A DNA stretch of 64,000 nucleotides from Escherichia phage EP75. Shown here piece after piece: positions 59,923 through 64,000 of the stretch (positions are counted from its first letter, which is position 1; each line of letters opens with the position of its first letter). A program made the translations under genes and the position numbers. The stretch lies in sequence record MG748547; one strand, 5' to 3'. The notes under the pieces were generated by a model. It was not told the origin of the DNA and ran no database searches. It was given only the letters and a program-made list of their open reading frames with translations.

Positions 59923-62900
59923 ATGGCCAACAAACCAACACAGCCTCTTTTCCCTTTGGGTTTAGAAACTTCTGAGTCTTCGAACATAAAAGGCTTCAAC
60001 AACTCCGGCACTATTGAGCATTCCCCTGGTGCCGTAATGACATTCCCTGAAGATACTGAAGTTGCAGGTCTTCCATCTTCTGTGCGTTACAATCCCGATA
60101 GCGATGAATTTGAAGGTTATTACGAAAACGGTGGTTGGTTGTCTTTGGGGGGCGGCGGAATACGCTGGGAAACGCTCCCTCACGCTCCCTCTAGCAATTT
60201 GTTAGAAGGTCGCGGCTATCTCATTAATAACACCACAGGGGCATCTACAGTGGTTCTCCCTTCCCCTACGCGTGTTGGGGATTCCGTTACTATTTGTGAT
60301 GCCTATGGGAAATTCGCGACGTATCCATTGACCGTATCTCCAGCGGGAAATAACCTGTATGGTTCCACTGAAGACATGGCTATAACAACTGATAACGTAT
60401 CAGCAACGTTCACTTGGTCTGGACCTGAACAAGGTTGGGTTATCACATCCGGCGTCGGCCTTGGCCAAGGCCGTGTCTACAGTCGTGAAATCTTTACACA
60501 AATTTTGGCGTCTGAAACAAGTGCTGTCACTCTCAATACTCCACCAACAATCGTGGACGTGTACGCTGACGGAAAACGTCTTGCGGAATCCAAATATTCA
60601 CTAGATGGGAATGTGATCACTTTCAGTCCTTCTTTGCCAGCCAGCACAGAACTTCAGGTGATTGAATATACTCCTATTCAATTGGGTAATGGCGGTGGTT
60701 CTGGTTCTTCTACGATTACCTGGGTCTATAATGGGGGTTCAGCGGTTGGCGGTGAAACCGAAATCACGTTAGACATCGTTGTCGATGATGTTCCAGCCAT
60801 TGATATAAACGGAAGTCGCCAGTATAAAAATCTGGGGTTCACATTCGATTCATTAACCAGTAAAATCACTCTTGCGCAAGAACTGGATGCAGAGGATGAA
60901 GTTGTTGTAATTATCAATGGAACGCCAAACATCTATAATCAAATTGATTATACTTTGCGGGAAGTGGCTCGTGTAACCAATGTTAAAGATACAGAGGTCA
61001 TTTATTTTAGTGTTGGTGCTGTGTTAAGTGGGTATAAAGTTATCTATGATAAAGTAACACAGAGATCATATTTTATTCCAGAGCTACCGACTGGAACCAC
61101 GGCAGTCAGCCTTAGTTCTTCGGCTGTACTTGTGCATTCAGCTGGTAGTGTTGATCTGGGCGCATTAGCTGTATCTCGCGAAGAGTATGTTACCTTGTCT
61201 GGGACATTTGATTCTGGTGCTGTCATCAATACTAAAAATGAATTACTCACCCATACGAACGGTAAGTATCGCTGGGATGGTTCACTTCCTAAAACTGTCG
61301 ATGCTGGATCAACACCTGAAACATCTGGTGGAGTTGGTATTGGTGAATGGGTAAGTGTTGGTGATGCTTCTTTAAGATCTGATTTGAATTCGACAAATGG
61401 AGCTGGAATTGTAAAAACTGGAAATGGGAATACTGTACAAGAAACATTTGATTTTATAAAAAATGTTCAACAAACAAATCTACATCCTTTTGTTCCTTCA
61501 GGCAATTTCGGTTCTGGACTTCCTTTTGATTCTTCGTTACAGGTATTCAAGTATAATGATGAATATTACTCATACAAAGGACCTATTGTCCCAGGTTCGA
61601 CAGTTCCGGCAACCCCATCCGTTGACTCAAACTGGAAAAAAGAACCTATTTCTGATTACATAGAAAATTACGGTGGTGGTGTGCATGTAGCTGATCAGAC
61701 ACCTGCAATTATGGCGGCTATATCTGCTGGTGTTCGCCGTATCATATTTCCTAAAGGTGAACTTAGAATGTCTCAGTGTGATATCCCAGAGTACACACAA
61801 GGCCTCACGTTTGAAGGGCAAGGTGCCAATCAGGCGTACACTGGAACAACAGTGATCAAACCGTTAAATGATAATCAAAATTGTTTATTTAATTCTGGCG
61901 TAAACCAGCACGGACAGGATTCTATAAAATTTAAAAACATTCAATTTGACGGAGAATGGCGTTGCAATCATGCAATATTGCATGAGTCTGGAGCTGGTTG
62001 GTACTATGAAAAACTGACAGGTAAAAATTTCAATACATGGGTTATCTACGATGATCAGGGTTTGACTGTAATGCGTGACGTTTATACCGAAGCAACCAGT
62101 TCAGATCTGACGAAAAGAGCTACAGGTGGGTGTATCCGTATATACTCAGATTCTGTAATGGACACCGTAAACTGTTATGGTGGAAGTGTTCCGCTATTGC
62201 TCGCTGCTGGTGGAAACCGAATTACGAATATCTGGGCAAATGGTGGGTATGATGTTGGCGCAATAATGTTGATGCCAAAAAATGACAGTACTAACCATAT
62301 CAATACCGCTATGAGCAATATCTATATCGGAGAAAGCACAAATACATCTGCAACTGCAATTCCAGTTCTTCACATACAAGGTAACTCAATTCGTCGCGTA
62401 TCTGGTGTTCAGATTTCAAATGCACATTTTGTGCATGCTGACTTGACTCTCAATACAAACATGGTGATGATACGAACCGATAAAGTTGATGGTTTTGTGA
62501 TGTCATCTTTTGATGTTCTTGGACGAGGCGAGTACAGTTCTGCAAGCAGTCGCACATATAATTTCTTAAATGCGACAGATTCTACCGGAATGGCTTTTTC
62601 TGCCGGAAGTGTAAGAGGTATTAATAATAACCCAATAGTTTTATCATCAGGGTCTAGGTTAGCTATTGATGCCGTTGAATTCGATGGGTGGAGTACGAAC
62701 TCTGATTCAGGTATAGAGAATAAAGCTGCTATACGTTCATCTGGTGCTGGAACAAGGTGCTGCATTGGTAGCTCATGTACTTTCAATGCTTCGCAAGCGG
62801 ATGCTTACGCTGTGTATGCAGGGGATGAATTTGCAGTTGATATTTCTATTCTTAATCTTAACTATCCTAGTAGCAATATAATAATTCCTGCAAATACAAA

Positions 62901-62964
62901 TTACAGTTACATGTATAAGCGACCAGGCGGAAAATTAACCTTAGTCAACACATTGACAATTTGA
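59923..62964 (+). CDS. tailspike protein 1 (gp10-like N-terminal attachment domain, C-terminal beta-helix-like domain)
   Basis: 1013 aa; N-terminal resemblance to baseplate-attachment domains is by-eye; internal module shared with downstream tailspike; C-terminal Asn/Gly/Ser-rich repeats typical of parallel beta-helix. Confidence 0.65.
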   Translation: MANKPTQPLFPLGLETSESSNIKGFNNSGTIEHSPGAVMTFPEDTEVAGLPSSVRYNPDSDEFEGYYENGGWLSLGGGGIRWETLPHAPSSNLLEGRGYLINNTTGASTVVLPSPTRVGDSVTICDAYGKFATYPLTVSPAGNNLYGSTEDMAITTDNVSATFTWSGPEQGWVITSGVGLGQGRVYSREIFTQILASETSAVTLNTPPTIVDVYADGKRLAESKYSLDGNVITFSPSLPASTELQVIEYTPIQLGNGGGSGSSTITWVYNGGSAVGGETEITLDIVVDDVPAIDINGSRQYKNLGFTFDSLTSKITLAQELDAEDEVVVIINGTPNIYNQIDYTLREVARVTNVKDTEVIYFSVGAVLSGYKVIYDKVTQRSYFIPELPTGTTAVSLSSSAVLVHSAGSVDLGALAVSREEYVTLSGTFDSGAVINTKNELLTHTNGKYRWDGSLPKTVDAGSTPETSGGVGIGEWVSVGDASLRSDLNSTNGAGIVKTGNGNTVQETFDFIKNVQQTNLHPFVPSGNFGSGLPFDSSLQVFKYNDEYYSYKGPIVPGSTVPATPSVDSNWKKEPISDYIENYGGGVHVADQTPAIMAAISAGVRRIIFPKGELRMSQCDIPEYTQGLTFEGQGANQAYTGTTVIKPLNDNQNCLFNSGVNQHGQDSIKFKNIQFDGEWRCNHAILHESGAGWYYEKLTGKNFNTWVIYDDQGLTVMRDVYTEATSSDLTKRATGGCIRIYSDSVMDTVNCYGGSVPLLLAAGGNRITNIWANGGYDVGAIMLMPKNDSTNHINTAMSNIYIGESTNTSATAIPVLHIQGNSIRRVSGVQISNAHFVHADLTLNTNMVMIRTDKVDGFVMSSFDVLGRGEYSSASSRTYNFLNATDSTGMAFSAGSVRGINNNPIVLSSGSRLAIDAVEFDGWSTNSDSGIENKAAIRSSGAGTRCCIGSSCTFNASQADAYAVYAGDEFAVDISILNLNYPSSNIIIPANTNYSYMYKRPGGKLTLVNTLTI

Positions 62965-63003
62965 TAACAAGAACCCATGATTCATAAATTTTATTAGTTC
63001 AGA

Positions 63004-63040
63004 CTAAATACCCCATATTGGTCATCCTTTATGGGGTATT
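63004..63040 (+). promoter_or_regulatory. late-promoter-like motif inside hairpin that pairs with the ribosome-binding region
   Basis: CTAAATACCCCAT-N16-ATGGGGTATT, 3 nt before ATG 63044. Confidence 0.5.
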
Positions 63041-63043
63041 ATC

Positions 63044-64000
63044 ATGATTTCTCAATTCAATCAACCACGCGGCTCCACTTCTATAGAAGTTAACAAACAA
63101 TCTATCGCTCGAAATTTCGGTGTCAAAGAAGACGAAGTCATTTATTTCACTGCTGGTATTGATCTCAGTGGATTTAAAGTAATTTATGATGAGTCTACCC
63201 AACGGGCTTATTCTCTTCCTTCAGGTATTGTTTCAGGAACGACTGCGATAAGTCTGAACGAACAAGCCATCCTTACTCATTCTTCTGGCTCTGTTGACCT
63301 TGGGGAATTAGCAGTAAGTCGCGAAGAATATGTGACTTTACCTGGTTCTTTTAATTTCGGCCATACCATTAATGTGAAAAATGAACTTCTTGTTCACGAT
63401 GATAAAAAATATCGATGGGATGGTTCACTTCCTAAAACTGTCGATGCTGGCTCAACACCTGAAACATCTGGTGGCGTTGGTTTAGGTGCATGGTTGAGTG
63501 TTGGTGACGCAGCATTTAGACAGGAAGCCAACAAAAAATTCAAATATTCAGTAAAGTTATCTGATTATTCTACATTACAGGATGCAGCGACAGCAGCCGT
63601 AGATGGATTGCTTATTGATATCAATTACAACTTCACAGATGGTGAGTCTGTAGATTTTGGTGGTAAGACTTTAACCATTAACTGTAAGGCTAAGTTTATT
63701 GGAGATGGGGCTTTAATCTTTAATAATATGGGGCCAGGCTCGGTAATTAATCAACCATTCATGGAGAGCAAGACTACTCCATGGGTCATTTTCCCGTGGG
63801 ATGCTGATGGTAAATGGATTACAGATGCTGCCCTTGTTGCTGCAACGCTGAAGCAATCAAAGATTGAAGGCTATCAACCTGGGGTAAATGACTGGGTTAA
63901 ATTCCCTGGATTAGAGGCATTACTCCCACAGAACGTTAAAGACCAACATATTACAGCCACTCTAGATATTCGCAGTGCCAGCCGAGTAGAAATAAGAAAT
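63044..64000 (+). CDS. tailspike protein 2, 3' partial (runs off window end)
   Basis: Open frame from ATG 63044 to window end; N-terminal 130 aa homologous to residues about 355-485 of tailspike 1. Confidence 0.65.
   Translation, partial: MISQFNQPRGSTSIEVNKQSIARNFGVKEDEVIYFTAGIDLSGFKVIYDESTQRAYSLPSGIVSGTTAISLNEQAILTHSSGSVDLGELAVSREEYVTLPGSFNFGHTINVKNELLVHDDKKYRWDGSLPKTVDAGSTPETSGGVGLGAWLSVGDAAFRQEANKKFKYSVKLSDYSTLQDAATAAVDGLLIDINYNFTDGESVDFGGKTLTINCKAKFIGDGALIFNNMGPGSVINQPFMESKTTPWVIFPWDADGKWITDAALVAATLKQSKIEGYQPGVNDWVKFPGLEALLPQNVKDQHITATLDIRSASRVEIRN

Follow-up and report, generated by a model that had tools for sequence, protein, structure and literature searches.

A shared D1-D2 head module and a probable gene-conversion tract in the neighbouring tailspike genes tsp4 and tsp3 of Escherichia phage EP75

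Two neighbouring genes at the end of a 64,000-nucleotide stretch of the Escherichia phage EP75 record MG748547 (hereafter the window) are identified by sequence comparison as tsp4 and tsp3 of a four-tailspike branched complex. Their products share a module of 150 amino acids, recognized from its sequence as the D1-D2 (also TD1-TD2) head, a pair of domains of old paralogous origin. Patch and flank comparisons indicate that 43–66 nt near the 3′ limit of the D2-coding part of tsp3 are of tsp4 type through gene conversion. The joint reading, in which a tsp cluster with old D1-D2 paralogy combines gene conversion at the junction with cassette-like exchange of receptor-binding bodies at that junction, is in our view very probable. 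The sharing of the module is in itself a real but ordinary finding, and its novelty is low.

The tsp4 and tsp3 genes and their products

The window belongs to the genus Kuttervirus (Ackermannviridae) and shows 97.6% DNA identity to Salmonella phage SJ3; a 4078-nt query matched SJ3, ST-W77 and SPTD1 over its whole length at 96–98% DNA identity, and these three phages carry the same tsp4 and tsp3 alleles as the window. The following features are referred to below.

59923..62964, + strand: tsp4 gene, 1013 aa (open reading frame; 97.6% DNA identity to SJ3 ORF129)
59923..60936, + strand: TSP4 N-terminal baseplate anchor (AD) and T4 gp10-like XD1, XD2 and XD3 (7REJ alignment, residues 1–338)
61390..62961, + strand: putative receptor-binding body of TSP4, aa 490–1013 (present in 24 Kuttervirus records)
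62965..63043, + strand: tsp4-tsp3 intergenic region (CTAAATACCCC motif at 63004–63014, hairpin at 63007–63040)
63044..64000, + strand: 5′ part of the tsp3 gene, 319 codons, running past the window end (the full SJ3 protein has 708 aa)

The gene order is that of baseplate wedge genes, tsp4, tsp3, tsp2, tsp1 and vriC. Within the window a T4 gp6-like wedge gene (56013–57845) is followed first by two other genes and then by tsp4 and the beginning of tsp3. Both tsp2 and tsp1 fall outside the window, past its end, and the remainder of the order was read from the annotations of SJ3, Det7 and S117, the last of which gives tsp4-tsp3-tsp2-tsp1. A search of the upstream 396-aa gene for tandem repeats found none at the DNA level. 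The identity of the two genes is further supported by matches of their products to PDB entries 7REJ, 5W6H, 5W6F, 2V5I and 4OJ5 and to Pfam families PF18668 and PF09251. A preliminary description of the window had proposed a branched multi-tailspike assembly, and this proposal is supported by the assignment to the Kuttervirus four-tailspike complex.

Residues 1–338 of TSP4 are near-identical to the N-terminal part of CBA120 TSP4 (7REJ/7RFO, the former being TSP4-N335; E 4e-219) and residues 344–532 match 5W6H, giving the order anchor with XD1-XD2-XD3, D1-D2 head (341–489) and receptor-binding body. The AD-XD1-XD2-XD3 region has been described as the platform from which the other tailspikes branch, and TSP4 is anchored via its AD-XD1 region (both PMC8825819). 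The TSP4 body had no Pfam or PDB sequence match; residues 520–1010 share 52% identity with FP_0046 of the Drexlerviridae phage vB_EcoS_FP, a homologue that starts about 30 aa past the module. In published work, the equivalent TSP4 of SPTD1 and EP75 was not linked to any host (PMC9965104).

The start codon of tsp3 is at 63044, position 63045 being out of frame. Residues 1–167 of TSP3 match CBA120 TSP3 (5W6F, E 1.8e-96) as well as 4OJ5 (E 9.8e-69), and residues 151–319 match the Det7 tailspike 2V5I (E 3.6e-106). With the Pfam PhageP22-tail family beginning at aa 161, the head is followed by the features of a neck and a trimeric β-helix body, and TSP3 is on these matches predicted to carry a P22-like endorhamnosidase body. 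The intergenic hairpin has a folding energy of −20.9 kcal/mol (z −4.5), and its 3′ arm (GGGGUAUU) sits at the ribosome-binding position of tsp3; the same 65-nt intergenic element is also found upstream of tsp2 in relatives.

One of the closest known systems is CBA120, which has the same tsp gene order. Its TSP4 (ORF213) shows the same succession of AD-XD1-XD2-XD3, D1-D2 and body, the N-terminal 338 aa of the window TSP4 being near-identical to 7REJ, and its TSP3 (ORF212) that of D1-D2, neck and body; its heads 5W6H and 5W6F match those of the window at E 1e-84 and 2e-96. The two phages differ in their bodies: CBA120 TSP3 is directed at E. coli O77 and TSP4 at O78, whereas the window TSP3 is P22-like. 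Det7 gp207 (2V5I) is near-identical to the TSP3 body over the part within the window, but Det7 has another TSP4 body, similarity ending at 61367, and its tsp3 patch (see below) is tsp1-like and not tsp4-like.

The D1-D2 head module

60943..61389, + strand: copy 1, TSP4 D1-D2 head, aa 341–489, internal (BLASTP; 5W6H alignment)
63083..63532, + strand: copy 2, TSP3 D1-D2 head, aa 14–163, N-terminal docking position (BLASTP)

Pairwise BLASTP aligned TSP4 residues 341–489 with TSP3 residues 14–163 (96 of 150 positions identical, 64%; E 4e-60) with a single 1-aa gap, so that the homology of the two modules, suggested from the DNA letters, is well founded. Its extent needed correction: about 130 residues starting at residue 355 had been proposed, but since the match spans 150 aa from residue 341, the module comprises about 150 aa. 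Similarity confined to low-complexity sequence would have undone the homology; the composition of the module is ordinary, and chance or low-complexity similarity was rejected on this ground and on the E value. The TSP4 head matched the solved heads 5W6H, 4OJ5 and 5W6F (E 1.1e-84, 1.1e-61 and 5e-57, respectively), and D2 corresponds to Pfam Tail_spike_N (PF18668) in both TSP4 (aa 416–481, 79.0 bits) and TSP3 (aa 90–155, 96.3 bits), at a gathering cutoff of 25 bits. Near-identical heads are available as crystal structures (5W6H, 5W6F and 4OJ5). Both copies are homologous to the crystal heads of CBA120 TSP1, TSP3 and TSP4, the three tailspikes that have the D1-D2 head in common (PMC8825819, PMC8432352), and both are placed as expected, at the N-terminus in TSP3 and after AD-XD1-XD2-XD3 in TSP4.

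By homology to CBA120, from whose biochemistry the docking role is transferred, docking by the head would be confined to TSP3 and TSP1. When its head is removed, CBA120 TSP3 fails to join the complex in analytical ultracentrifugation, and the internal head of CBA120 TSP4 neither helped nor hindered partner binding (both PMC8825819). With its N-terminal head as docking module, the TSP3 trimer would plug onto the XD3 platform that the TSP2:TSP4 complex presents. The TSP4 head, lying behind the anchor and XD1-XD3, would connect the branching platform to the body of TSP4 itself. The earlier term "shared anchor module" therefore suits TSP3 and TSP1 but not TSP4, which is anchored by AD-XD1. A similar design is seen in G7C gp63.1/gp66 and other two-spike systems (Gamaleyavirus, Schitoviridae), where the secondary tailspike docks through a D1-D2-like head (Tail_spike_N) to the primary spike at its gp10-like domains; the Schitoviridae phage SP154 shares D1-D2 and a P22-like body with the window TSP3 at 75% DNA identity. 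G7C-type systems differ in that they belong to podoviruses, have two spikes instead of four, and show no relationship between the N-terminus of the primary spike and the anchor domain of TSP4 (PMC8825819).

The position of the two copies in adjacent genes and their near-identical core could point to a recent duplication of the whole head between tsp3 and tsp4 in the EP75 lineage. Outside the core, however, the copies are only about 60–65% identical in DNA, D1 being more diverged still, and the same arrangement occurs in CBA120, Det7, S117 and others. In addition, TSP3-type and TSP4-type sequences are each conserved in six phages: in the 174 nt upstream of the near-identical stretch, 49 fixed differences and one shared polymorphism were counted between them. 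Because these fixed differences separate orthologous classes across phages, recent duplication was rejected and is extremely improbable.

The junction stretch and the probable conversion tract

61264..61377, + strand: junction stretch, TSP4 copy, with near-identical core 61273–61338 (repeat search and alignment)
63416..63481 at most and 63427..63469 at least, + strand: TSP4-type tract inside tsp3 (patch versus flank difference counts)

A repeat search paired 61264–61377 with 63407–63520 (114 nt, 88% identity, spacing 2143); in the TSP4 copy, this stretch codes for D2 in its C-terminal half (KYRWDGSLPKTVDAGSTPETSGGVGIGEWVSVGDASLR). The 65-bp near-identity noted earlier stands, with 63 of 65 bases identical between 61274–61338 and 63417–63481, but its second coordinate had been placed one nucleotide too low; at 63416–63480 only 18 of 65 bases agree. 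Per 15-codon window, the same codon is used at 12–14 of the 14–15 degenerate codons with identical residues. In an equally conserved block (residues 405–424) this holds for only 5–6 of 13–14, and because codon sharing in the stretch is far above this level, its DNA identity exceeds what protein constraint would give.

The stretch matched 507 phage records at 73–91% DNA identity, among them Kayfunavirus, Sashavirus, Saltrevirus and Schitoviridae, and recurs in genes for tail fibres or tailspikes across several genera and families that are unrelated to one another. The peptide YRWDG..PK.V..GSTP...GG.G.G.W.SVGDA..R is kept across phage families, and cross-family DNA identity at codon positions 1, 2 and 3 is 0.79, 0.91 and 0.59; the cross-family conservation thus appears to lie mainly at the protein level, with variation concentrated in third positions. 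This conserved peptide and coding pattern would be in line with purifying selection on D2 plus codon bias as the sole cause of the near-identity, with no recombination between paralogues. Such an account is very unlikely, as other tsp3 alleles encode KVVAAGSTPDSSGG or KVVPAGSTPASTGG here and differ from the window allele at 13–20 of 52 nt, whereas the window tsp3 has the wording of tsp4 (2/52 differences) between flanks that stay tsp3-type. Over the 37-codon stretch, moreover, window tsp3 and tsp4 use the same codon at 25 of 30 identical-residue degenerate codons, compared to 12 of 26 for Chennai tsp3 and the window's tsp4.

It is also highly improbable that the stretch is kept for a nucleic-acid element (RNA structure, internal promoter, pause site or the like) and not through recombination. 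The breadth of the 507 matches would fit such an element, and the TSP4 copy folds slightly better than its shuffles (z −2.0), but the TSP3 copy does not share this (z −0.4), the two copies have different minimum-energy structures, and the cross-family variation falls mostly on third codon positions. RNA structure in the stretch was rejected on the folding results, and a promoter and terminator consensus scan found no site in either copy, region-wide totals being at shuffle level.

Gene conversion, the preferred explanation, is indicated by the counts along tsp3. At 63425–63476, tsp3 of the window shows 2/52 differences from the tsp4 next to it and 20/52 from the tsp3 of Chennai and moki, while the flanks show 3/150 and 0/38 differences from Chennai tsp3 and 52/150 and 9/38 from tsp4 (patch versus flank discordance, Fisher p 5e-6 and 2e-12). 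A TSP4-type patch in an otherwise TSP3-type gene points to short-tract gene conversion, which would have overwritten the tsp3 tract with tsp4-type sequence; elsewhere in their DNA the paralogues are about 62% identical. The window allele is at least 95% identical in 69 phage records and 80–90% identical in 205, and many Salmonella Kutterviruses would have the converted allele; how old the conversion is and which way it went were deduced from six clusters and the BLAST identity classes. Ancestral polymorphism sorted among lineages may be considered for the tract discordance, but patches matching a different paralogue would then be left unexplained.

A second, independent case of conversion is suggested by the tsp3 of Det7 and S117, in which the patch at the same place is tsp1-like (6/52 differences from S117 tsp1, 19/52 from Chennai tsp3) and the left flank is not (49/150 from tsp1, 3/150 from Chennai tsp3). 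Three tsp3 alleles, own-type, tsp4-type and tsp1-type, thus exist at one 52-nt patch, and in the six phages the 102-nt junction stretch has 2 fixed differences and 12 shared polymorphisms. Based on these three alleles and on shared polymorphisms outnumbering fixed differences there, it is conceivable, though rather doubtful, that recurrent short-tract conversion, a concerted evolution restricted to the junction, keeps the roughly 100-nt D2 end similar in tsp1, tsp3 and tsp4 as a homology "landing pad", making bodies exchangeable between the complex's three positions and with unrelated phages. Alternatively, the similarity may follow from conservation of the protein, with microhomology arising as a by-product and without selection for it.

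Exchange of receptor-binding bodies at the junction

The stretch lies directly before the α-helical neck and forms the conserved junction between the N-terminal structural part and the receptor-binding body. A comparison with the tailspike loci of related phages, which the preliminary description had recommended, showed that bodies differ and that TSP4 similarity ends at 61366–61367 in Det7, Chennai and S117 and at 61391 in 3HA11. In siphovirus 64795_sal3, similarity to tsp3 sets in at 63410 and continues into the P22-like body, and in EcoDS1, Sasha, CB1 and AB4P2 similarity is limited to about 100 nt, their proteins carrying D2 between unrelated anchors and bodies. Junctions outside the stretch also exist, as tsp3 similarity to moki and S117 extends to 63825 and the Drexlerviridae homologue of the TSP4 body starts only past the module. 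Homologous recombination in or near the stretch, combined with conserved sequence in the intergenic region that follows each tsp gene, would let bodies move as cassettes, and such an exchange would alter host range with complex assembly undisturbed.

Working chimeras have been built in SPTD1, a phage with the same two tailspike types as the window, by cutting at Ala157 of TSP3 and aa 479/480 of TSP4 (PMC9965104). Spontaneous tsp4 x tsp5 recombination has been reported (PMC11414711), and recombination between TSPs has been proposed (PMC8432352). The suggestion that the shared module offers a substrate for recombinational host-range switching is accordingly supported by breakpoint mapping, conversion patches and the published chimeras and recombinants. 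Pas et al. 2023 (PMC10408124) describe conserved DNA motifs one and two at the boundary of anchor and receptor-binding domain, a proposed recombination hotspot, both for RBP1, RBP3 and RBP4 of Kuttervirus and for further lytic genera. Compared by their text description, the window stretch resembles these motifs in location (3′ end of anchor-domain coding) and cross-genus conservation; Kayfunavirus occurs both among the matches of the stretch and in their list, while the other genera matched here differ. The passages of that paper considered here make no mention of short conversion tracts between paralogues of a single genome. Published and in experimental use already are the module, the motif conserved at the junction, and domain swapping there.

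For annotation, the gain is that the two genes can be named tsp4 and tsp3 and assigned to a Salmonella phage of the SJ3/SPTD1 type. Since the TSP3 of SPTD1 has been shown to confer recognition of Salmonella O:4/O:9 (PMC9965104), recognition of O:4/O:9 Salmonella is predicted for the TSP3 of the EP75 window. The small addition made here is direct sequence evidence that tsp paralogues exchange patches of 40–70 nt at the junction. Head module and junction form the basis of modular host range in Ackermannviridae: any receptor-binding body can be mounted on the same docking domain, and exchange of bodies, in nature and by design, is made possible by the conserved junction, chimeras cut exactly there being functional.

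Tailspike genes and their surroundings

Two tailspike genes were identified by ORF scan:

59923-62964, + strand: tsp4, an ORF of 1013 aa
63044 to past the window end, + strand: tsp3, 5' part only, 319 codons visible

The closest DNA relatives of the region are Salmonella phage SJ3 (97.6% identity) and ST-W77, SPHG3 and SPTD1 (96-97%), all Kuttervirus, Ackermannviridae; in annotated relatives the gene order is wedge genes, tsp4, tsp3, tsp2, tsp1, vriC. The first protein is TSP4 by homology, with near-identity to the CBA120 TSP4-N crystal structure 7REJ over residues 1-338 (E 4e-219) and a match to 5W6H over residues 344-532. 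The second is TSP3: residues 1-167 match CBA120 TSP3 (5W6F, E 1.8e-96), residues 151-319 match the P22-like endorhamnosidase 2V5I, which is the tailspike of Det7 (E 3.6e-106), and Pfam PhageP22-tail is assigned from aa 161 onward.

For the TSP4 receptor-binding body (window 61480-62952, aa 520-1010) no Pfam or PDB sequence match was found. Protein FP_0046 of the siphophage vB_EcoS_FP, a member of the Drexlerviridae, shares 52% identity with it (L013 960-3473); in FP_0046 the body is preceded by an unrelated 347-aa N-terminus without Tail_spike_N. For the equivalent TSP4 of SPTD1 and EP75, a published study identified no host (PMC9965104).

Directly 5' of tsp4 lies a gene (58686-59876, + strand) for a 396-aa homologue of Det7 gp205, annotated as hypothetical or structural. 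Several STYNxKMxSLDxSISxL-like segments are repeated mid-protein, which points to a coiled, fibrous region; the gene itself showed no tandem repeat in its DNA, and a BppL_N match is weak and under the Pfam cutoff. Upstream of the baseplate/tailspike block, three tRNA genes (Tyr-GTA, Asn-GTT, Met-CAT) are present at 51918-52733 (- strand), and tRNA-Asn and tRNA-Met genes also occur in the corresponding region of SJ3.

The Ackermannviridae motif CTAAATACCCC is located just 5' of the tsp4 and tsp3 start codons:

59879-59918 and 63004-63040, + strand: motif/hairpin copies, also in SJ3 (L001 13300-13365)
48515-48525 and 48036-48046, - strand: two further copies of the motif

Part of it, AAUACCCC, pairs with GGGGUAUU in a strong hairpin (dG -19 to -21 kcal/mol, z about -4.5 to -4.9); AAUACCCC is the 5' arm, and GGGGUAUU, the 3' arm, lies 4-7 nt before the ATG of tsp4 and tsp3 and covers the ribosome-binding position; the inner stems vary between copies through compensatory changes. 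By analogy, this arrangement may resemble that of the T4 lysozyme gene, where the ribosome site is hidden in read-through transcripts and exposed when transcription starts inside the hairpin. In S117 (L006 5501-5607) and Det7, a GC-rich terminator, AAAACCCCGCTTCGGCGGGGTT, stands 3' of the tsp genes; in SJ3 it occurs after tsp3 and tsp1, and the GC-rich hairpin downstream of tsp2 is a different one. This terminator, which probably corresponds to "motif three" of Pas et al. 2023, is lacking behind tsp4 of the window/SJ3 type (window 62965-63000), and Det7 has a 343-nt tsp4-tsp3 spacer instead (L002 10147-10490).

The shared D1-D2 head

A homologous module had been proposed for both tailspikes, and BLASTP of TSP4 against TSP3 returned one strong match (residues 341-489 versus 14-163, 64% identical, E 4e-60) with a single 1-aa gap. 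Its composition is normal, so that the similarity is not limited to low-complexity sequence; its length is about 150 aa rather than the 130 aa first estimated. The module is the D1-D2 (TD1-TD2) head, D2 corresponding to Pfam Tail_spike_N (PF18668; TSP4 aa 416-481, TSP3 aa 90-155). At DNA level, 61264-61377 aligns with 63407-63520 over 114 nt at 88% identity. Inside this junction stretch, the near-identical 65 bp of the preliminary description were recovered (63/65 bases), with the second copy one base further on (61274-61338 versus 63417-63481, not 63416-63480).

In CBA120, D1 and D2 are reported as common to TSP1, TSP3 and TSP4, and gp10-like XD domains precede the head in TSP2 and TSP4; TSP1 and TSP3 join the complex via their heads and headless TSP3 fails to bind, while partner binding was unaffected by the TSP4 head (PMC8825819, PMC8432352). 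By homology to these results, the head would be a docking domain in TSP3 of the window phage, and in TSP4, where the actual anchor precedes it, an internal connector. The earlier view of the module as an anchor thus fits TSP3 but not TSP4.

Exchange between paralogues in the junction stretch

Beyond the stretch, codon usage in the two copies is that of old paralogues: the same codon is used at 5-6 of 13-14 identical residues (residues 405-424), compared with 12-14 of 14-15 within it. The tsp3, tsp4 and tsp1 heads of the window, SJ3, Det7, moki, Chennai, S117 and 3HA11 were aligned. The tsp3 of the window and of SJ3 carries a tsp4-type patch with tsp3-type sequence on either side.

Differing positions between window tsp3 and two references (left flank; patch 63425-63476; right flank)
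Own tsp4: 52/150; 2/52; 9/38 (Fisher p for patch/flank contrast 5e-6)
Chennai tsp3: 3/150; 20/52; 0/38 (Fisher p 2e-12)

This pattern points to short-tract gene conversion, with tsp4-type sequence as the donor because it is carried by every tsp4 examined. Judging from the informative sites, the tract covers at least 63427-63469 and at most 63416-63481 (43-66 nt), and this upper bound coincides with the previously noticed 65-bp stretch. The patch allele is common among phages: identity to a 180-nt window segment is at least 95% in 69 phage records and only 80-90% in 205. The matches to this tsp3 segment also include a "Pseudomonas" record, and part of OR844942.1 (111 kb), labelled "Enterococcus phage Efm 3-10", matches the window tsp3 head at 100% identity; both records are probably mislabelled or mixed.

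A second, independent conversion is indicated in Det7 and S117, whose tsp3 patch is tsp1-like (6/52 differences from S117 tsp1, 19/52 from Chennai tsp3) within a tsp3-type left flank (49/150 from tsp1, 3/150 from Chennai tsp3). Across six phages, the 174 nt upstream of the stretch contain 49 fixed T3/T4 (tsp3-type/tsp4-type) differences and one shared polymorphism, compared with two and 12, respectively, in the 102-nt junction stretch, a contrast that reads as the signature of repeated exchange confined to this stretch.

A junction for swapping bodies

The comparison with related loci shows that the stretch is also a junction at which bodies are swapped. Similarity of TSP4 to relatives with other bodies stops at 61366-61367 (Det7, Chennai, S117) or 61391 (3HA11). 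Matches to the 114-nt stretch occur in 507 phage records, among them Kayfunavirus, Sashavirus, Saltrevirus and Schitoviridae. EcoDS1, Sasha, CB1 and AB4P2 show similarity over about 100 nt only; in siphovirus 64795_sal3 it extends from 63410 into the P22-like body, and in SP154 it spans the head and part of the body. In the non-Kuttervirus proteins, D2 is preceded by unrelated N-termini (e.g. a T7 tail-fibre domain) and followed by unrelated bodies (beta-helix, P22-like, G7C-type esterase). Junctions occur elsewhere too: tsp3 similarity to moki and S117 runs to 63825, and in the Drexlerviridae protein, homology to the TSP4 body begins about 30 aa past the module.

The tsp1 position is split into two ORFs in SJ3 (L001 16178-16735 and 16789-18714) and moki (L003 14111-14776 and 15058-16152), the short one encoding only the D1-D2 head and stopping just past the junction motif, with the body in a separate ORF; either a disruption of the gene or a recombination scar at the same junction could account for the split. 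A D2-like junction motif, YRWDGAFPKTVAAGSSPASTGGVGNGSWVSVGDATLR, is present in Det7 TSP2 (gene 208, tsp2 position; L002 13336-13494), unlike CBA120 TSP2, for which the absence of D2 has been described, so that the motif is not confined to TSP1, TSP3 and TSP4 in every Kuttervirus.

All essentials of module and junction have already been published. The D1-D2 head and branched assembly were described in PMC8825819, and recombination among TSP1, TSP3 and TSP4 was proposed in PMC8432352. Cuts at TSP3 Ala157 and TSP4 aa 479/480 gave functional chimeras in SPTD1, whose TSP3 and TSP4 are of the same types as those of the window (PMC9965104), and tsp4 was reported to recombine spontaneously with an added tsp5 (PMC11414711). 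Together with the conversion patches and similarity breakpoints, these published experiments support the suggestion of a substrate for body exchange. Short paralogue-to-paralogue conversion tracts are the only detail for which no description was found in the available parts of this literature.

Cross-family identity of the stretch at codon positions 1, 2 and 3 is 0.79, 0.91 and 0.59, a coding pattern, and no consistent RNA fold common to both copies was found; the stretch is therefore conserved mainly at protein level. The DNA homology at the junction is a consequence of this protein conservation, and recombination can exploit it.
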